Shown one piece after another: positions 2,780-15,321 of a DNA stretch of 25,205 bases. The DNA comes from a virus (lineage: Duplodnaviria > Heunggongvirae > Uroviricota > Caudoviricetes). Positions within the stretch are counted from its first letter, which is position 1, and each line of letters starts with the position of its first letter. The notes beneath the pieces are model-generated. The model was not told the origin of the DNA. It ran no database searches and saw only the letters and a program-made list of their open reading frames with translations. The stretch lies in IMG/VR virus record IMGVR_UViG_2541047688_000007, positions 1 to 25,205 of that record; one strand, written 5' to 3'. The position numbers were made by a program, and so were the translations under genes.

Positions 2780-2785
2780 GCATGT

Positions 2786-2815
2786 AAAAAGGCCCCAACA
2801 CATGTGCGTGGGGCC
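2786..2815 (-). terminator. rho-independent terminator-like hairpin upstream of the lysis cassette
   Basis: Minus-strand GGCCCCA...TGGGGCC 7-bp stem with 11-nt loop followed by TTTTT (plus-strand A-run 2786-2790). Confidence 0.4.
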
Positions 2816-3015
2816 TGAGAGTATACATGGTTTCAGTCAACTGCATGGTGCCGGGTGCCTCCCGGTGAATTCAGTACCAGCACCTGAATCCGCGATTATC
2901 CCATATACCTACTCGCTGATTGCCCCTCCGCACAGGGGGATTCACCATGCCAGTTTCTTTTAACAAACTCCCCGCAAACCAGACAACAGTCAACCGCCTG
3001 AATTGTGAGACATTT

Positions 3016-3040
3016 AAAAAAAAGCCCGCAAAAGCGAGCC
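3016..3040 (-). terminator. rho-independent terminator immediately downstream of the tRNA cluster
   Basis: Minus-strand GCTCGC-TTTT-GCGGGC hairpin followed by T8 (plus-strand A-run 3016-3023), 15 nt after the tRNA-Arg(UCU) 3' end. Confidence 0.45.
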
Positions 3041-3054
3041 AGGGAAAATAAGTG

Positions 3055-3131
3055 TGGCGCGTTGTACTGGATTCGAACCAGTGACCGATTGCTTAGAAGG
3101 CAATTGCTCTGTCCGGCTGAGCTAACAACGC
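3055..3131 (-). tRNA. argO: tRNA-Arg (anticodon UCU)
   Basis: Hand-folded cloverleaf on minus strand: 7-bp acceptor GCGTTGT/ACAACGC, D-arm GCTC...GAGC, anticodon arm ATTGC-CTTCTAA-GCAAT (UCU), T-arm ACTGG-TTCGAAT-CCAGT, encoded CCA; symbol by analogy with the ileZ-argN-argO cluster of Stx/lambdoid phages. Confidence 0.8.
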
Positions 3132-3144
3132 AGGATACAGATAA

Positions 3145-3221
3145 TGGACCGCCTTCGGGGACCCGAACTCCGCGCAACCAGCTTCGAAGGCTGGCGCTCT
3201 TTCCTGATGAGCTAATGGCGG
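3145..3221 (-). tRNA. argN: tRNA-Arg (anticodon UCG), possibly degenerate
   Basis: Minus-strand cloverleaf with anticodon arm CCAGC-CTTCGAA-GCTGG (UCG) and encoded CCA, but one A-A mismatch in the acceptor stem and one A-C mismatch in the T-stem, G at T-loop position 58. Confidence 0.55.
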
Positions 3222-3228
3222 TATGTGA

Positions 3229-3304
3229 TGGTGGCCCTTGCTGGATTTGAACCAGCGACCTGGCGATTATGAGTCGCTCGCTCTCACCACTGAGCTAAAG
3301 GGCC
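3229..3304 (-). tRNA. ileZ: tRNA-Ile2 (anticodon CAU, lysidine-type; formally Met-like anticodon)
   Basis: Minus-strand cloverleaf GGCCCTT...AAGGGCC acceptor, anticodon loop CTCATAA (CAU), T-arm GCTGG-TTCAAAT-CCAGC, encoded CCA; very similar by eye to E. coli ileX-type tRNA. Confidence 0.8.
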
Positions 3305-5004: not shown

Positions 5005-6162
5005 ATGACCACACTCAAAGAACTCAAAGAAGAGCTTGCTCAGATTCAAGATGAAAACGCGAAAAATAGAAAAAAAGCTGAAATTGCAGCCTTGGTCACT
5101 TCTGCCGACAACGAGATTAGGCTTGCTCAGAGAAATATTGGATACAACGTACGTGAATGGACCGTTGAATTAATTGTACAAAAGTATGGCAATAATCTTG
5201 AAACTGACAAAAACGAACTTTTTATTCCTGATTATCAACGCGATTACAAATGGGATATCAAAACAGCCTCTCGATTCATCGAAAGTATATTATTAGATTT
5301 TCCAATCCCGTACCTCTACATCTCCGACGTATTTAATGAAGATCCTGAGTTGGATGGTCGTGTAGAAATTATTGACGGTTCACAAAGGATTCGCTCAATT
5401 TACTACTTTTGGAACAATCAGTTTGAATTGAAAGACTTAAAAGAACTCAAAAGTTTAGAGGGCTTCAAATTTTCAGATCTTTTGGCTAGCCGCCAGAGGC
5501 GATTTTTAAGGGCATCACTAAGATTTATTGAATTGAAAGGTGATGTTGAGGAGCAGCATAGAAGAGATTTATTCGAAAGAATAAATTCAGGTGTTAAGAG
5601 ACTGGAAGCGATGGAGGTTAGACATGGTTCAGATGCGGCCACTTCAATTTTCTATAGGGATGTTGTGACTCCTTGCTCAACAAATCCACTTTTCGCTAGT
5701 CTAGCTCCATTATCAGATCGGAAACGTTCGAATGGCGATCATCGTGAGTTAGTTTTGAGATTTTTTGCATACTTAAATGATTTAGAAAATTATAAGGGTT
5801 ATGTCGCTCCTTTTATTGACAATTATCTTAATGTTCAGGCCGAAAGGGTCACACAACAAGATGTAGACAAATTTAAACATGATTTTGAAAGCATGCTTGC
5901 TTTTGTAGATGCTCATTTCCCTATGGGGTTTAAAAAGACACCAACAAGCAAAACCACCCCCCGTGCTAGATACGAAGCCATAGCAGTGGGAACTGCTCTT
6001 GCCTTAAAAGCCAATCCACATCTACAGGCTCCGGTTATTCCTGTAGGAGACTGGCTGTTTGGGGAGGAATTTGAAACCATAGTTACTGCTGATAGTGCCA
6101 ACAACACCAGCCAACTCAAAAACAGAATATTTTATGTCAAAGATAAATTATTAGGAATGTAA
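5005..6162 (+). CDS. DUF262 (ParB/Srx-like) domain protein, GmrS-type N-terminal module without recognisable DUF1524 nuclease domain
   Basis: 385-aa ORF; DUF262 signatures FIPDYQRDYKW and IIDGSQRIRS (DGQQR-type motif); no His-Me finger motif seen in C-terminal half; AT-rich codon usage. Confidence 0.75.
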   Translation: MTTLKELKEELAQIQDENAKNRKKAEIAALVTSADNEIRLAQRNIGYNVREWTVELIVQKYGNNLETDKNELFIPDYQRDYKWDIKTASRFIESILLDFPIPYLYISDVFNEDPELDGRVEIIDGSQRIRSIYYFWNNQFELKDLKELKSLEGFKFSDLLASRQRRFLRASLRFIELKGDVEEQHRRDLFERINSGVKRLEAMEVRHGSDAATSIFYRDVVTPCSTNPLFASLAPLSDRKRSNGDHRELVLRFFAYLNDLENYKGYVAPFIDNYLNVQAERVTQQDVDKFKHDFESMLAFVDAHFPMGFKKTPTSKTTPRARYEAIAVGTALALKANPHLQAPVIPVGDWLFGEEFETIVTADSANNTSQLKNRIFYVKDKLLGM

Positions 6163-6164
6163 CT

Positions 6165-6854
6165 ATGAGTTTGATTGATTTAAGAGATGAATACGAAGAA
6201 AGAGCAAGAGATATTATGGAATTGCTTTCTCTTGCGTCATCTTTAGAGGCTCAGACTCAGCAGTTAGATCAGCAAACGCATAAAGATGAAATAGAATCAA
6301 ATACCCTTAGGGTTAACATTTTAAAATCATCCGTGCACATGATGCTGTACAATCAGGTTGAAAACACTGCCAGAGGATGCATTGAGTCAATTTATGACCA
6401 TTTGCAAGATAATGAAGTAAATTACGCATCACTCAGGGAGAAATTCCAAGTAAATATCTTGCACCGTATCATTTCAGATAATGAATCGGGAAAATCTCTT
6501 TATCAAAAAATTGGTTCCGATATATCTAAAAGGATCATTTCAGCCTCATTAAACATACGTAAAGAATTCAATGGTAATGTTTGCAAGTCTGTATTGCACA
6601 AAATAACACAAGCTTACGGAATAACTGTTGCAAACTCACCAGAGTGTAGAAATGGTGTTGACTTAGATTTACTTAAAGATATCAGAAATGAGCTGGCACA
6701 TGGAAGTACCAGCTTTTCTAAAAAAGGTCAAATAGACCCTTTAGAAGAAGTCAAATCGAGGTCAGAAAGAATTGATCTATATTTGCGTTTATTAATCAAC
6801 TCAACAGAAAATTATATTACCTCTAACGGGTATTTATCCCCTCAACATGTCTGA
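6165..6854 (+). CDS. HEPN-like domain protein (putative RNase/abortive-infection effector)
   Basis: 229-aa ORF starting 2 nt after the DUF262 stop; C-terminal R-x4-H-G motif DIRNELAHG (residues ~174-180) typical of HEPN superfamily; assignment from motif only. Confidence 0.6.
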   Translation: MSLIDLRDEYEERARDIMELLSLASSLEAQTQQLDQQTHKDEIESNTLRVNILKSSVHMMLYNQVENTARGCIESIYDHLQDNEVNYASLREKFQVNILHRIISDNESGKSLYQKIGSDISKRIISASLNIRKEFNGNVCKSVLHKITQAYGITVANSPECRNGVDLDLLKDIRNELAHGSTSFSKKGQIDPLEEVKSRSERIDLYLRLLINSTENYITSNGYLSPQHV

Positions 6855-8295: not shown

Positions 8296-8552
8296 CAGCG
8301 CAGTACCTCCTGCACCAGTTTTTCAAACTTACCAACTCTGGTTTCCAGCTCTGCCACACAATCCACCAGCTCATCCACTGCTTTTTGTGCACGGTGTTTT
8401 GCCTGCATCAGTTCCCTGAGCGCTGGCACCATATCCCGACGAATGGCATCTTTTGTTACACCTGTTTTTTCCAGTTGTTCCGCCTGCCGCAACATTTCCT
8501 GTGCCTGTTTACGTAATTGCTCAGGGGTAAAAGTCATTGTCTGGTTGTTCAA
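8295..8552 (-). CDS. hypothetical coiled-coil protein (~80-85 aa)
   Basis: ORF overlapping the DnaB stop (TTG at 8550-8552 or ATG at 8535-8537) and the Q start (ATGA); charged helical sequence, no recognised motif. Confidence 0.45.
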   Translation of the reverse strand: MNNQTMTFTPEQLRKQAQEMLRQAEQLEKTGVTKDAIRRDMVPALRELMQAKHRAQKAVDELVDCVAELETRVGKFEKLVQEVLR

Positions 8553-9949
8553 AAGAAACGCTCCATCTTACTGCTGTCAGTTCGTTTGTTGCTGTATCTG
8601 CGCGGCTGGGGCTGTTGCATTGGGGTGGAAAGAACCTGTGCGCTTTCCTGATCCACAGGCAGAAAATGTCCGTTATAAAAACGCCGATAAATCGTCCCCA
8701 GAGAACCGTTACGTTGTTTCGTGATATTGATTTCTGCGATGCCCCTGGCCTGCGTATCCGGGTTGTACACTTCATCCCTGTAAAGCATCAGAATGATGTC
8801 TGCATCCGCCTCTATTTCTCCGGAATTTTTCAGGTCTGAGTTCATGGGGCGTTTATTGGGTCTGGACTCCACACCGCGGGAGAGCTGGCTCAGCGCAATC
8901 AACGGAAAACCACCGGATTTTGCCAGGCCTTTAAGCCCCTTTGAGATTTCACCCACGGCAAGGTCATGACGCCCCGTGGTTCGGGTTTTTATCAGCCCGA
9001 GATAATCAACCACCACCAGCGCCGTTTCCGGATGTTTAATCAGGTGATGTTTCGTTGTTGCGCATATCTCATCAATGGTCAGGTTCGCCTGGTCCACCAT
9101 CCAGATATTGCGCCCGGTCATCCGCCCCACTCCTTGTGAGAAACGTGCCCAGTCTTCGTCTTCAAAGTGAGTGACAGATTTCAGGCGTGATACCGGCATT
9201 CCTCCAGCCGCAGATACCATGCGTTCACCAATCTGGATGTTCGCCATTTCCATTGTGAACAGGAGAACGCCGTGCCCCTGTTCAGTCACCTTGTCGATGA
9301 TATCCAGCGCCAGTTCGGTTTTACCCATCGAAGGACGAGCAGCAATAAATACCAGGTCGCCGGGCTCCATGCCGCCTGTTTTTGCGTCCAGTTCATCAAT
9401 ACCGGTCATCAACGTTCTGGATTTCTCCTGTCCCTGATTCCGGCATTCAACACGCTCAACCACCTCCGGAAGCACATCATCAATATGTACCGGCTGAATA
9501 ATGCCCTTTTCCGTCGACAATGAGGCCATCATGTTCTGCGCATCCTTCAGGGCATCTTCAGCTGCTTCACAGGTATGCGCATCACGTAATTTCTGCAACG
9601 CCTCATTCAGCGTTTTTTCTGCATCGCGCAATGCGGCATTGCGCCGCAACGCTGCAACATAGTGCTCCAGTGAAGACTTCACCCAGGTTTTGCGCCCGGT
9701 ATCAGTAATCACCGGGGCAAGTTCCGGCATCTCATTACACAACAGCACAGGGTCAATCACGCCTGAAACACGGGCCTGTCTGCAGATGCCTGTGTAGATA
9801 TCCCTATACGCTCGTACAGAAAAAACGTCCGCAGGTAGTGTGACCAGAATATCCATCACTTCAGGATCTGCCCCACGCAGAAAGAACGCACCGATGACAG
9901 CGCCTTCCAGGTCATCGTTACGCCATGCCGGGGTGTTCTGGCTGGTCAT
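8549..9949 (-). CDS. replicative DNA helicase, DnaB family
   Basis: 466-aa ORF with Walker A (ARPSMGKT), Walker B-like (LVVVDYLGL) and DnaB-type N-terminal domain. Confidence 0.9.
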   Translation of the reverse strand: MTSQNTPAWRNDDLEGAVIGAFFLRGADPEVMDILVTLPADVFSVRAYRDIYTGICRQARVSGVIDPVLLCNEMPELAPVITDTGRKTWVKSSLEHYVAALRRNAALRDAEKTLNEALQKLRDAHTCEAAEDALKDAQNMMASLSTEKGIIQPVHIDDVLPEVVERVECRNQGQEKSRTLMTGIDELDAKTGGMEPGDLVFIAARPSMGKTELALDIIDKVTEQGHGVLLFTMEMANIQIGERMVSAAGGMPVSRLKSVTHFEDEDWARFSQGVGRMTGRNIWMVDQANLTIDEICATTKHHLIKHPETALVVVDYLGLIKTRTTGRHDLAVGEISKGLKGLAKSGGFPLIALSQLSRGVESRPNKRPMNSDLKNSGEIEADADIILMLYRDEVYNPDTQARGIAEINITKQRNGSLGTIYRRFYNGHFLPVDQESAQVLSTPMQQPQPRRYSNKRTDSSKMERFF

Positions 9950-10854
9950 GCGGCAACACCTCCGATACGAGAACGGTAGCTGGGCCAGTTAAACGACAAC
10001 CAGTTGCGCCCGCCATCGGTGATTCTGTCGGCAATCCGGGGACTGATGAACGCCCACAATTCTTCCGGTGAAAGGTTGCTGATCAGGATAGTTGGCAAAA
10101 TACCCTCATACCGGGCATTGATAATTTCCTGCAAAATGGCCATTTCAGCCGCACTGCCAAACTGAACGCCGACTTCGTCGACAATCAGCAAATCCAGTGA
10201 CGCATAATGCTCAATGACGTCATCCGCTGTTTTTTCACTGTCATTCCGCCAGCAGTTTTTCACAGCCCGGGTAAGGCGCATCACGTCGGTGATCTCCACA
10301 CTGGCCAGATAGTTACGGATGATGTGTTTTGCCATTGATACCGCCAGATGATTTTTCCCGGTACCGCAACTGCCGGTCATAACAAGACTGGTACCGTTCT
10401 CCAGCATATCTGGCCAGTTCTCCGCATAGCGGCGACAGGCCGCAAGATTTCTGGCTGCGTCAGGATTAACCTCCAGATAATTATCAAACTCGCAGTCCCG
10501 AAAACGCAGAGCAATTCCGGCGTTATCAGTCAGTTCTTCCGCCTTGAGGGACGACAGTTCCATGGTCAAATCACTGGCCTCAGCGATCAAGCAGTCAGGG
10601 CAGCATGAAATTTTTTCTCTGTCCTCGCCATTACGATCGATCCACACCAGTATATGCGTACGATATTTACCGTGTTTTTCGCAATATCCGCGACCTTCAC
10701 GCATCAGGCAGGAACGATAAGGCCATGGCTTTTCGCCCTTCTGAGCAAATGCAATCTCTGCCCGTAACTCATCCATTTCTGCCCGTAAATCATCCATTCG
10801 CGCCTGTAGTCTTGTTTGTTTCTCACGTTGGTCAATCGTCATCATCGCTGTCAC
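9946..10854 (-). CDS. DnaC/IstB-like AAA+ helicase loader with N-terminal Cys/His zinc-binding-like region
   Basis: 302-aa ORF; P-loop GSCGTGKNHLA, Walker B LLIVDEVG; N-terminal C-x2-H...CC-x2-C cluster. Confidence 0.8.
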   Translation of the reverse strand: MTAMMTIDQREKQTRLQARMDDLRAEMDELRAEIAFAQKGEKPWPYRSCLMREGRGYCEKHGKYRTHILVWIDRNGEDREKISCCPDCLIAEASDLTMELSSLKAEELTDNAGIALRFRDCEFDNYLEVNPDAARNLAACRRYAENWPDMLENGTSLVMTGSCGTGKNHLAVSMAKHIIRNYLASVEITDVMRLTRAVKNCWRNDSEKTADDVIEHYASLDLLIVDEVGVQFGSAAEMAILQEIINARYEGILPTILISNLSPEELWAFISPRIADRITDGGRNWLSFNWPSYRSRIGGVAA

Positions 10855-10855
10855 C

Positions 10856-11782
10856 TCAGAATGTCAATTTGTTACTGGATTTACCGAATTTGTCAGACAT
10901 GGCTCCCAGGCCAGCCAGGACATCGACCTGTCGCTGTCGCCCACCTCCGTGAGCGGCTGGCTGTTGCCAGTAATCTTCGAAGTGACGATCGGGTCCAAAG
11001 AACGTCGCAGCCTGCTTCACGAACTGTGTGCCGGTATTTCCTGTAGCACGTACCCAGGCGGCATACCGCTTCACGCCATCAAGCATGGTCTCCGGTTTTA
11101 TTCCCTCCCTGATACGGGCTTTCCAGGCTTTGAAGGCTGCAGATTTTGAATTGCCACCAGCACGTTTGGGATATTCCTGCCAGGCCTGTTCAAATTCCGG
11201 TGAATATTCCTGTCTGGCAGAACGCGCTGGTGCAGACGCGTCAGCGGATGCGCCAATATCTTGCGGTTCATGTTTTGAATTTACTGGTGGTTCATGTTTT
11301 AAACCTTGTGGATCTGGAGTCAGATTCTGAAGGGTCAAACGCGTATTTTTGCCAGAATCTGAAGGCTCAAACACGCCTGAACATACAGATTCTGACGGTT
11401 CAGATTTTGAAAGTTCAGAATCTGAAGGGTCACGTAATACTGAAAGTCTGCGCTGCTGTTTCAGTTCTGCAACCTTATCCCGCTCAGTTCTGGCAAGCTG
11501 CTCAAGCCGATCAGCATTCAGATGATAAAGATTGGACGTATTACGGTTACCTTTGCGGCGTGACTGACGCGTCAGCCAGCCATCAGCCTCCAGTTCGGAG
11601 ATTGCCGTTCTGACTGTACTTTCTCCCAATCCAAGCTGTCGACATATGGTTTCAACACCCGGGTAGCACACCCCGTCATCATTCGAATAATCAGCCAGGC
11701 GCGCCATAATCATCAGTTTTGCACCTTTGACGCCATATGCTGCGCATGCATCCCAGACATTACCGAGGATCTTGCTACTCAT
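10856..11782 (-). CDS. replication initiator, O-like (N-terminal HTH domain) containing internal iterons
   Basis: 308-aa ORF with N-terminal winged-helix region (DGVCYPGVETICRQLGLGESTVRTAISELEADGWL); position immediately upstream of DnaC/DnaB-like genes; internal direct repeats consistent with an ori embedded in the gene. Confidence 0.7.
   Translation of the reverse strand: MSSKILGNVWDACAAYGVKGAKLMIMARLADYSNDDGVCYPGVETICRQLGLGESTVRTAISELEADGWLTRQSRRKGNRNTSNLYHLNADRLEQLARTERDKVAELKQQRRLSVLRDPSDSELSKSEPSESVCSGVFEPSDSGKNTRLTLQNLTPDPQGLKHEPPVNSKHEPQDIGASADASAPARSARQEYSPEFEQAWQEYPKRAGGNSKSAAFKAWKARIREGIKPETMLDGVKRYAAWVRATGNTGTQFVKQAATFFGPDRHFEDYWQQPAAHGGGRQRQVDVLAGLGAMSDKFGKSSNKLTF
11266..11435. 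repeat. candidate iteron array / replication origin inside the O-like gene
   Basis: Two copies of GGTTCATGTTTT (11266-11300) followed by 4-5 imperfect direct repeats of CAGA(A/T)TCTGAAGG(G/C)TCA (11319-11433). Confidence 0.5.
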
Positions 11783-12003: not shown

Positions 12004-12194
12004 GGACGCACCTCCGCCGTAGTTACGTATTTAACCGGGCTACCTTTCATTGAGATGGTTTCACACATCTCTGCCGCTTTCAGTTCCGCTGTTTTTCTGG
12101 ATTTATAGCGACGGTGCCAGACAGATACATCCGTGCGAACTGATACATCGTTTCTGTATTCCGTAGTGGAGATGATGATTTCGTAACTAATCAT
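12000..12194 (-). CDS. hypothetical protein (64 aa)
   Basis: ORF with ATGA overlaps to both neighbours; no recognised motif. Confidence 0.4.
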   Translation of the reverse strand: MISYEIIISTTEYRNDVSVRTDVSVWHRRYKSRKTAELKAAEMCETISMKGSPVKYVTTAEVRP

Positions 12195-13042
12195 GGGCGA
12201 ACCTCCTTGTCAGAACCATTCAGCCTGGAATCAACAAGTGCAGCGCCAAAAACAGCATCACCAACACGGTCGTACAGTTTGCTAGCCAGCGGAGATTCAA
12301 CGGCCTTAAGCATTGGATAAAGCTGGCTTGTCCAGATTTGATGGATTTCACGCAAATGCAGGTATACGCCTCTGGCGTTTCGTGCGACAGCTGACATATC
12401 AGACGTATCGGCACCTGATAAACTCTTCTCCATCAGGTTAAAGGCGTTGATGTATGCCTCTTTGAACCGGGCAGCACGTTTACCAGTGAAGCCCATGGCA
12501 AGGAACGCGAAGCCATCGCGGGTGATTTGATAGCAAGGTAGTTTGCGGCCTGATGCGTCGGTGTATTCACTTAACACAAAATTGTGTTCAGTAAATTCAG
12601 CGGAACATTCGAGGTTTCTAATTCTATCTAAAACCCGCTCATGCCGTTTAGTAAAGTAATTAGCTACTGCAAGAGATGTGGTGACAACGCGACCATTGAT
12701 AATCGTGATTTCAGGGTGAGATTGGGTTGGGAGAGTAGTCATGGTGACAGCCCCTATGTTGAATTCAATGAACTCACCACCAAGGCTTTCCACGACCATA
12801 TAGGTGGTGAGACGTACAGGGGTGGAAATACCGGTCAACATAGAACCCGGCCCAACCGAAGTTGGCCCTGCACGCCCCACCATAATTTGGGCGTAACGAT
12901 GCTCATGACACGAAAAAACCGCATGAGCGCGGTTGTGCTCTATATTGAATTTCGGGTTTCCACGCCCGGCACCCGCTTTATAAGGTGCAGAGACAGTGTA
13001 ACGTCCCGAAATTGCAGAATCAATATGCTGGTGGCGGATCAT
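12191..13042 (-). CDS. Rha-family phage regulatory protein (paralog 2)
   Basis: Core ITIINGRVVTTSLAVANYFTKRHERVLDRIRNLECSAEF...ITRDGFAFLAMGFTGKRAARFKEAYINAFNLME matches the Rha (Phage_pRha) pattern as I recall it; ~100-aa N-terminal extension whose first residues are shared with the upstream paralog. Confidence 0.7.
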   Translation of the reverse strand: MIRHQHIDSAISGRYTVSAPYKAGAGRGNPKFNIEHNRAHAVFSCHEHRYAQIMVGRAGPTSVGPGSMLTGISTPVRLTTYMVVESLGGEFIEFNIGAVTMTTLPTQSHPEITIINGRVVTTSLAVANYFTKRHERVLDRIRNLECSAEFTEHNFVLSEYTDASGRKLPCYQITRDGFAFLAMGFTGKRAARFKEAYINAFNLMEKSLSGADTSDMSAVARNARGVYLHLREIHQIWTSQLYPMLKAVESPLASKLYDRVGDAVFGAALVDSRLNGSDKEVRP

Positions 13043-13701
13043 AGGTGCACCTCCCGTTGATTACGACGGAACGCGGAGTGACCCTGGACGGTTTCAGCCT
13101 CATGGAATGCTTCAATACAGCTCTCGTAGTACCGCATTGTGCGCAGACTTAACCCAAGCTGAAGCATCATCAGACCATCAAGGGTGATGTAATAACCACG
13201 CAGGGAGTCACCGTAGATGTGATAAGTACCCGGTATGAAATTGCGGGTAAAAAACTCGCGTGAGCAGTTCAGATACTCGATTTTGTCGACGATGTTCTGG
13301 TGCATGCGCTTAAAGTGGCAGGCAACATGCAGGGAGAAAATAACGGCCTTGCCGTTGACAACTTCAATTTTGAGGAATGGGGAAGTTGGGACTGTAGCCA
13401 TGATGGCAGCCTCCGTTGACTGTGGAAAACTTCCACCACCGGAGCTGCGAAACTCACTGGTGGCAGACTGAACAGGGTTCGCAGTACCGGCGTCAACGGA
13501 GACCGGCGAGCCTTTCGGCTCCCCTGCCCAGCCCACCATAATTCTGGCGTGCGTGAGCGCGGACGATAAAAAAGACGCTGGCGCGTCATATATCGCCGTT
13601 GACAATTCCGGGCTGCGACCCCCGGCACCCGCTTTATAAGGTGCAGAGACAGTGTAACGTCCCGAAATTGCAGAATCAATATTTGGTCTTGAAATGATCA
13701 T
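13039..13701 (-). CDS. Rha-family phage regulatory protein (paralog 1, divergent)
   Basis: Core EVVNGKAVIFSLHVACHFKRMHQNIVDKIEYLNCSREF...ITLDGLMMLQLGL resembles the Rha domain; N-terminal DSAISGRYTVSAPYKAGAG shared with the downstream paralog. Confidence 0.6.
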   Translation of the reverse strand: MIISRPNIDSAISGRYTVSAPYKAGAGGRSPELSTAIYDAPASFLSSALTHARIMVGWAGEPKGSPVSVDAGTANPVQSATSEFRSSGGGSFPQSTEAAIMATVPTSPFLKIEVVNGKAVIFSLHVACHFKRMHQNIVDKIEYLNCSREFFTRNFIPGTYHIYGDSLRGYYITLDGLMMLQLGLSLRTMRYYESCIEAFHEAETVQGHSAFRRNQREVHL

Positions 13702-15000: not shown

Positions 15001-15210
15001 TCACTTCCCATCTTCCGTGTGCGCTAGGCTTGGGTGTGTATATGGAATGCTCGGATCCAAATGACAAAGAATGGCAACATCCTCCGGAACACCTCGCGTT
15101 TTCCACTTTCCAACACCTTGACTGCCACGAGGCCTTCCTTTCTTTGGGAACCTGCGACCAATAGCGGCATTGGTTTTAAATTGAATTTTTAATATTTCAT
15201 AAAGGGTCAT
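15001..15210 (-). CDS. hypothetical small basic protein in the cro position
   Basis: 69-aa ORF immediately leftward of the cI-divergent operator region; contains PKKGRPRGS (AT-hook-like); weak SD; no clear Cro HTH recognised. Confidence 0.3.
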   Translation of the reverse strand: MTLYEILKIQFKTNAAIGRRFPKKGRPRGSQGVGKWKTRGVPEDVAILCHLDPSIPYTHPSLAHTEDGK

Positions 15211-15321
15211 TCTTTAGTCTCACACCAGATACTTTGTTATCCAACGATGTTAACCACAGGAATCCAAAGTATCAAGAAATTCTGTTACTTTAGTATCAAC
15301 AGCCATGAGAGGAGAAGAAAA
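15211..15321. promoter_or_regulatory. immunity-region operator/promoter zone (divergent PR/PRM-like)
   Basis: Intergenic region between the cro-position ORF and the cI-like gene; ATACTTTG (15229-15236) and its inverted copy CAAAGTAT (15265-15272), plus imperfect 26-bp palindrome 15266-15291. Confidence 0.4.

Follow-up and report, generated by a model that had tools for sequence, protein, structure and literature searches.

A probable lambda-like replication origin embedded in the initiator gene of a phiP27-like prophage

The segment 11262-11432 of the DNA analysed here (a stretch of 25,205 nucleotides, hereafter "the window") very probably serves as the replication origin of a phiP27-like E. 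coli prophage; it lies within that part of the replication initiator gene which encodes the linker of the protein. The window represents such a prophage. Several complete E. coli chromosomes match the region at 100% identity, and strains such as SCU-387 and FDAARGOS_1252 carry the identical prophage. The arrangement is an expected one, similar to the classic lambda origin, and brings no new principle; it is a well-known kind of origin, of which this member is apparently undescribed. The evidence comprises an array of iterons with an adjoining, modest AT-rich element, a placement and order shared with lambda, co-variation of the repeats with the DNA-binding domain of the initiator and selection on the repeats as DNA.

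Genomic Context and the Replication Initiator

The initiator gene (10856-11782, minus strand; 927 nt, 308 aa) was recognised as an ORF with matches to Pfam HTH_36 and PHROG 270. The HTH_36 match lies at aa 23-70 (E = 9e-12, over the Pfam cut-off), the match to phrog_270 "replication initiation protein" extends over aa 2-307 (E = 8e-81), and the PHROG labels matched read "replication initiation protein / O-like". With its N-terminal HTH_36 and full-length PHROG match, the protein fits the HTH_36 winged-helix phage replication initiators (PHROG 270/391/11896); phiP27 L17 shares 94% identity with it over the whole gene.

The layout of the initiator is an N-terminal winged-helix domain, a repeat-carrying linker and a C-terminal module. 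The N-terminal DNA-binding domain is predicted at aa 1-95 (11498-11782, minus strand) from Pfam, homologue comparison and a low-confidence AF2 model, with GESTVRTAI (aa 53-61) as the putative recognition helix. The C-terminal module (10856-11258, minus strand) is a 403-nt segment common to phages with different N-termini and, by analogy, would be the domain which recruits the helicase or its loader. The structure was modelled with AlphaFold from the single sequence (pLDDT 49, low confidence) and is taken as a weak hint: the N-terminus is winged-helix-like (helices 43-49 and 54-66, beta-hairpin 70-73/85-88), followed by a long helix (90-116), a stretch without secondary structure (aa 117-194) and a helical C-terminus. 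Such a model fits, as weak evidence, with a tolerant linker being what the repeats encode.

Directly downstream of the initiator, on the same strand, lie a gene for a DnaC-like helicase loader (9946-10854, minus strand; Pfam IstB_IS21; PHROG 50 "DnaC-like helicase loader", E = 1.5e-87) and then a gene for a DnaB-family replicative helicase (8549-9949, minus strand; Pfam DnaB_C, E = 8.5e-73, together with similarity to NCBIfam DnaB and phage_DnaB). The NCBIfam DnaC similarity of the loader product falls under the cut-off.

The Iteron Array

Five direct copies of CAGAWTCTGAAGGNTCA are present at 11321-11432, inside the initiator gene (gene nt 350-461). A preliminary description of this DNA had proposed an iteron-like array here, with two copies of one motif followed by four to five imperfect direct repeats of another, inside the coding sequence of an HTH initiator. 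Both repeat sets were recovered to within 1 nt, as GGTTCATGTTTT (two copies) and CAGAWTCTGAAGGNTCA (five copies), and both lie within ORF 10856-11782, the product of which carries the HTH_36 domain. Since this ORF is on the minus strand, the motifs as first written must be reverse-complemented to give the coding strand. The repeat-finder check suggested for the array returned it again, both by repeat search and by TRF.

The copies are spaced, start to start, by 32, 33, 15 and 15 bp on the plus strand, that is 15, 15, 33 and 32 bp in coding order, with starts in the coding orientation at gene nt 350, 365, 380, 413 and 445. Iteron 1 (TGACCCTTCAGATTCTG on the coding strand; 11416-11432, minus strand) is read as D-P-S-D-S and opens a run of three 15-bp tandem units; it is followed by iteron 2 (TGAACTTTCAAAATCTG; 11401-11417, minus strand), read as E-L-S-K-S, and iteron 3 (TGAACCGTCAGAATCTG; 11386-11402, minus strand), read as E-P-S-E-S, after which an inverted partial copy reaches 11378. 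These three, the closest to the HTH-coding end, constitute the 15-bp tandem array found by repeat search and TRF. Iteron 4 (TGAGCCTTCAGATTCTG; 11353-11369, minus strand), read as E-P-S-D-S, lies 33 bp from iteron 3, and iteron 5 (TGACCCTTCAGAATCTG; 11321-11337, minus strand), at 32 bp from iteron 4, is the sole perfect match to the consensus and is read as L-T-L-Q-N-L. When up to 3 mismatches were allowed, CAGAWTCTGAAGGNTCA gave 8 matches (the five direct copies and three overlapping ones on the reverse strand) against 0.52 expected, a number reached by none of 100 shuffles; at the same threshold, no copy was found elsewhere in the 25-kb window.

The repeat unit can be written T(T/C)TGA-CCCN-TCAGA-W-TCTGA, with the 11-bp palindrome TCAGAWTCTGA as its core. 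The array is an alternation of TCAGA and TCTGA half-sites at centre-to-centre distances of 6 and 9 bp, in which two overlapping dyads can be read, one of 11 bp (TCAGA-W-TCTGA) and one of 14 bp (TCTGA-N4-TCAGA). As the TGA upstream is conserved, the unit may span both, and either dyad could be the one which is bound. Predictions of a promoter or terminator within the element were not above chance.

The Adjoining AT-Rich Element

The candidate DNA-unwinding element is an AT-rich tract at 11262-11315 (minus strand), which contains two copies of AAAACATGAACC and one GATC (11311-11314). On the plus strand this motif is GGTTCATGTTTT, which has exactly two copies in the 25-kb window (11265-11276 and 11289-11300); the pair is weak evidence when taken alone, because 5 of 100 shuffles gave at least two matches. 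The least stable 40-mer of the gene (11267-11307, gene nt 475-515) begins 13 nt past the last iteron, has an AT content of 71% (z = 2.2 against the gene) and is A-rich on the coding strand (A:T 21:8). An AT-rich element next to the repeats had been proposed as a check on the origin; such an element is present and flanks the iterons on the side where lambda has its own, though it is a modest one. On the window scale, this 40-mer merely ranks in about the top 7%, and more AT-rich stretches exist, for example 6126-6166 and 15176-15216 (83% AT each). A homologous 24-bp AT-rich repeat, GATCCACAAGTAAATTCAAAACAT, is kept in relatives, with a third-codon-position conservation of 0.79. Searches beside the iterons for DnaA boxes (at most 1 mismatch) and the IHF consensus found none in the window.

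Comparison with Lambda and Other Origins

Lambda O (900 nt) and the initiator of the window (927 nt) were measured with the same tools. The earlier likening of the array to lambda, in which the ori iterons lie within gene O, is borne out by position, the iterons occupying gene nt 350-461 here and 348-432 in lambda, which has four of them (annotated). In both cases, repeats with internal dyad symmetry are located in the initiator gene between the parts for the N-terminal DNA-binding and C-terminal recruiting domains, and the least stable 40-mer lies past the iterons and is A-rich on the coding strand: nt 435-475 in lambda (78% AT, z = 3.0, A:T 25:7) as compared to nt 475-515 in the window (71% AT, z = 2.2, A:T 21:8). 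The two systems differ in the iteron word and in its spacing, which is 20, 24 and 23 bp start to start in lambda as against 15, 15, 33 and 32 bp; the lambda sites measure 18 bp and recur every 20-24 bp, whereas three of the five copies in the window are a 15-bp tandem with overlapping half-sites. The partners are different as well, since the phage of the window encodes a DnaC-like loader and a DnaB-like helicase, while lambda P captures the host DnaB. The Pfam scan of the initiator (E <= 0.01) listed HTH_36, GntR, PaaX and others, but not Phage_rep_O, and BLASTP against lambda O gave no significant similarity (best E 0.027, out of register). By analogy, the element is lambda-ori-like, but its initiator is outside the lambda O sequence family.

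Typical plasmid iterons are ~17-22 bp long, placed outside the rep gene and separated by about two helical turns, whereas those of the window are inside coding sequence and have a 15-bp period. At iteron plasmid origins of the RepA/RepE/pi type, a winged-helix initiator binds direct repeats adjoining an AT-rich unwinding region (PMC2647930). Among phages, the lambda-type origin is made up of iterons together with an AT-rich tract, both midway along O, and synonymous mutations in the iterons abolish plasmid replication (PMC7466680). Lambda, P22 and L have distinct iterons, each within its own initiator gene (PMC8022706), gene 18 of P22 and gene 18 of phage L holding the equivalents of lambda ori; that iterons differ between lambdoid initiators is thus already on record (PMC8022706, PMC7466680). 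The "P27" of one of these studies (PMC7466680) was considered as evidence for the present module and set aside: it has lambda-type O and iterons, its O being lambda O with two substitutions, and hence does not represent this replication module.

Relatives and Copy-Number Variation

More than 580 relatives were obtained in one scan of viral contigs with an alignment query; a single-protein scan of genome contigs gave 4 loci only. The family figures are based on 80 of the >580 relatives, representing 76 unique genes. The linkers of these 76 genes carry 2-7 copies of the word, at spacings of 15 (135 cases), 30, 32/33 and 48 bp, and the word is ~230-fold enriched there, at 36 per kb in the linker as compared to 0.16 per kb over the remainder of the loci. 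Furthermore, the 60 nt past the last copy are 63% AT, compared to 50% over the whole genes. Close relatives (n = 8) differ solely in how many 15-bp tandem units they have (2, 3, 4 or 5), while neither iteron 4, iteron 5 nor the AAAACATGAWCC pair changes. With the tandem part so variable (2-7 copies across the family), not all copies need be functional. The loss of similarity at window position 11386 in two E. coli genomes was considered as a recombination junction; this was rejected, the difference being one of 5 tandem units in copy number.

The HTH_36 "O-like" initiators of the Shigella phages SfIV, SfII and SfV, Klebsiella phage 1 LV-2017, "Elizabethkingia" phage EKP1 and E. coli phiP27 (L17) have the same N-terminal domain (43-99% identity) and the same word, TCA-NAN-TCTG, at a 15-bp period, followed by the same 24-bp AT-rich repeat. 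Unlike the window, however, members of this group have other C-terminal domains and downstream genes, and SfIV is without DnaC/DnaB after its initiator. The last iteron is in frame in SfIV/EKP1-type relatives and frame-shifted in the clade of the window. In the search for DnaA boxes and IHF sites, TGATCCACA was seen in the AT-rich repeat of some relatives, but not in the window.

Co-variation of the Repeats with the N-Terminal Domain

Many Stx and other phages which have different "O" N-termini carry the 403-nt C-terminal segment at 92-99% identity. The mosaic junction is at ~11258, and identity at the protein level starts at IGASADAS, in the shared part. PhiR49_2 and Stx1_14040 share with the window a near-identical C-terminal module as well as the DnaC-like and DnaB genes. 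They differ from it in the N-terminus, and directly upstream of the junction each carries repeats of its own: those of PhiR49_2 are of the GGTGAATCTCCTGCAC type, while Stx1_14040 has three 23-bp GGTTTTCCCTTCTCCGCGGCGAG repeats and then four 12-bp TATTCTCTGTAG repeats. HTH_36 initiators at a greater distance follow the same pattern: Min27 O carries three 21-bp GGGGTGGGGCAGGAGCTGCCC repeats, and homologues in Snodgrassella prophages have TGCA-NAW-TCTGCA at the same 15-bp period, read as A-x-S-A, with three AGAACCATCAAT repeats after it. Changes in the putative recognition helices keep step with the repeats (GESTVRTAI, SPRSLIDQI, SKRSVMNHI and SRSTVKSHI). These comparisons indicate that the N-terminal domain and the repeats are one exchange unit, and the C-terminal domain and the loader/helicase genes another, a modular logic already known for lambdoid O proteins. 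Together with the DNA-level constraint described below, this co-variation shows that the repeats act in cis, as DNA, and belong with the N-terminal domain.

Selection on the DNA Rather than the Peptide

The preliminary description had named a finding which would count against an origin, namely a coding artefact, with the repeats arising from constraint on a repetitive linker. As a by-product of an acidic, Ser-rich linker, they would have no function at the DNA level. Four of the five copies do encode similar peptides: iterons 1-4 share one phase (phase 2) and encode (D/E)-P/L-S-(D/K/E)-S, the (D/E)PSxS peptide is fairly conserved as well and may have some role at the protein level, tandem units grow and shrink in-frame among close relatives in the manner of slippage-prone coding repeats, and the low-confidence model has no predicted secondary structure in the segment. 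Iteron 5, the perfect copy, is nevertheless in phase 1 and encodes L-T-L-Q-N-L. Its homologue is in frame elsewhere (FDPSDSGG in EKP1, FHPSESGG in SfIV), which implies that small indels flank the word in the lineage of the window and that the peptide was changed while the DNA was kept; the frame-shifted copy is retained by all members of the clade of the window, down to 72% protein identity. The word likewise survives changes of the peptide in other subfamilies, where Ser is replaced by Pro (TCA to CCA, "PPESG") with CAGAWTCTG retained.

Synonymous sites provide a further argument. A codon alignment was made of 26 representatives less than 93% identical to one another in the HTH-coding part. 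Third-position conservation was 0.53 in the HTH domain, 0.69 in the repeat segment and 0.79 in the AT-rich segment, and the fraction of the commonest codon at conserved degenerate residues was 0.52 (48 columns), 0.90 (13 columns) and 0.90 (4 columns), respectively. For the 17 repeat and AT-rich columns against the 48 HTH columns, the difference in codon fraction (0.90 versus 0.52) had a Mann-Whitney p of 2e-8, so that, contrary to what a linker by-product would give, synonymous sites are almost fixed. TCA and TCT together account for 89% of Ser codons in the repeat/AT-rich segment versus 27% elsewhere in the same genes. Within the units, the spacer positions are variable, in contrast to the fixed core and flank positions; at two places which the search pattern did not impose, T (-7) and A (-5) are found in 111 of 112 sites. 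Variable spacers between fixed cores imply site-specific selection and argue against a simple recent transfer of the whole segment. An overlapping or antisense gene was considered as the cause of the synonymous constraint and rejected, as stops occur in every alternative frame in most relatives (L031, L052 and L053 were left out of this check). Taken together, the out-of-frame copy, the synonymous constraint and the peptide changes which keep the word, along with the lack of a conserved alternative-frame ORF and the co-variation of repeats with the N-terminal domain, lead to the rejection of the coding artefact; at the level of sequence comparison, they demonstrate that the repeats are selected as DNA, independently of the encoded peptide.

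Proposed Mechanism and Alternative Explanations

By analogy with lambda, dimers of the N-terminal winged-helix domain of the initiator would bind the five palindrome-containing iterons, the resulting nucleoprotein complex would strain and open the adjoining A-rich, AT-rich element (11262-11315), and the C-terminal module would then deliver the loader (DnaC-like) and the helicase (DnaB-like), both encoded by the phage, to the melted region. Each of these steps, from binding by the initiator to loading of the helicase, is inferred through this analogy, and so is origin activity itself. A more elaborate joint reading goes further and is rather unlikely as a whole: dimers on the overlapping dyads would form a continuous, face-alternating filament, unlike the lambda O-some; the number of units (2-7) would evolve fast by slippage and tune origin strength or the incompatibility of replication modules; and the dual-coded acidic S-x-S peptide might be functional.

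The best surviving alternative, though an improbable one, is that the repeats are regulatory sites bound by the initiator (for autorepression of transcription downstream, copy control or replication-module incompatibility) and that replication starts elsewhere in the prophage. DNA constraint and co-variation with the HTH domain demonstrate a cis-acting site and not initiation itself, and the AT-rich element is unexceptional on the window scale, where stretches of 83% AT occur elsewhere. Against regulatory sites, the window has no iterons elsewhere, and relatives have 0.16 per kb outside the linker (in ~3.5 kb around the gene). Moreover, the position in the gene, the order of the parts and the A-rich strand bias duplicate the proven ori of lambda, the iterons of which are its origin (PMC7466680), and the AT-rich repeat is also constrained at its synonymous sites.

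Still less probable is a synonymous constraint which stems from mRNA structure, from a site bound by a different protein (of the phage or the host) or from a conserved recombination boundary at the module junction. Folding of the single strand does surpass that of shuffled sequences (z = -4.1), but palindromic repeats give such a score automatically, the variation in copy number (2-7) and spacing would break a specific RNA fold, and there is no Rfam match at the gathering score within 10856-11782, which also disposes of a known RNA family as a candidate. While the mosaic junction (~11258) does adjoin the element, the repeats change with the N-terminal domain, whereas the junction sequence IGASADAS is in the shared part; for another protein, the lack of a DnaA or IHF consensus is unfavourable. 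The linker by-product is the least credible of all and can practically be discounted, given the evidence above and the Snodgrassella homologues, which encode A-x-S-A with a related palindrome.

Significance and Distribution of the Module

Reading 11262-11432 as an origin locates the probable start of replication for a widespread module, with more than 580 relatives in one viral-contig scan. It occurs in Stx2e phages of the phiP27 type, in serotype-converting phages of Shigella and in prophages of Klebsiella, Citrobacter and E. coli. A literature search on phiP27/SfIV iterons and origin returned no description of these repeats and no binding or origin data for the phage family; as far as this search went, the genome papers of related phages make no mention of the origin and leave it unannotated. 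The established picture of lambdoid replication is unchanged by these findings. What they provide is a defined cis element of ~170 bp with a testable consensus, of use for minimal replicons, for predicting the incompatibility of replication modules and for interpreting mosaic junctions in the evolution of Stx phages. In addition, the frame-shifted yet sequence-preserved iteron is a clean natural case of coding DNA which is selected as DNA and not for its product. As for plasmids, a collection was searched for the module as the sole replicon of a small plasmid; its matches were prophages which sit within very large records, and one 16-kb circularised prophage fragment.

Possible regulatory words in the candidate origin and nearby repeats

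In many relatives (the compared loci L033, L032 and L012, among others), nucleotides about 450-520 of the initiator gene hold a 24-bp AT-rich repeat, GATCCACAAGTAAATTCAAAACAT, which carries 2-4 GATC sites and includes the word TGATCCACA, matching the DnaA box at 8 of 9 positions. In the window counterpart (11262-11315), by contrast, GAACC replaces two of the three GATC sites, and no DnaA-box-like word with up to one mismatch is left in the window. This difference in sequence between many of the relatives and the window suggests that Dam/SeqA or DnaA input differs between lineages. Apart from the five iterons, a sixth, weak iteron-like word, TGGCAATTCAAAATCTG (11140-11156; 4 mismatches), lies inside the shared C-terminal module of the initiator and is probably a chance match, since this module also occurs in phages with other iterons. 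Further, within the DnaC-like loader gene, the stretch that codes for the N-terminus contains a tandem repeat of its own (10757-10798; two copies of a 21-bp unit, 95% identical), encoding the peptides MDDLRAE/MDELRAE.

Nomenclature and database records

In PMC7466680 the name ‘P27’ stands for a phage whose O protein is of the lambda type, differing from lambda O by two substitutions, and which carries six lambda-type iterons, whereas the GenBank phiP27 genome (NC_003356; L001) encodes the HTH_36 initiator L17 along with DnaC-like and DnaB genes. The one name therefore covers different replication modules, posing a trap for annotation transfer. The host assignment of another relative, ‘Elizabethkingia phage EKP1’ (OM284015.1; L010), looks doubtful: the recorded host belongs to Bacteroidota, while the N-terminal domain of its initiator is 70% identical to that of the enterobacterial initiator and its iterons are the same. 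The 15,977-bp record NZ_CP148542.1 (L099), listed as a ‘plasmid’ in a plasmid collection, harbours an initiator homologue without an annotated CDS. With cI, cro, Q and lysis genes, the record is a circularised lambdoid prophage fragment and not a plasmid replicon.

RNA genes and a possible antirepressor region

Just upstream of the replication genes, Rfam matches above gathering scores place two pairs of isrK sRNA and C4 antisense RNA in tandem on the minus strand of the window (12800-12988 and 13456-13644). Two ORFs of the Ash/Rha type (12191-13042 and 13039-13701) each share their 5' part with one of these pairs, and the arrangement looks like a duplicated antirepressor control cassette of the P1/P7 immI-like type. 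Elsewhere on the minus strand, genes for tRNA-Arg(tct), tRNA-Arg(tcg), tRNA-Met and the sRNA STnc100 are clustered at 2780-3304, an arrangement typical of the late-region tRNA clusters of Stx-type lambdoid phages.
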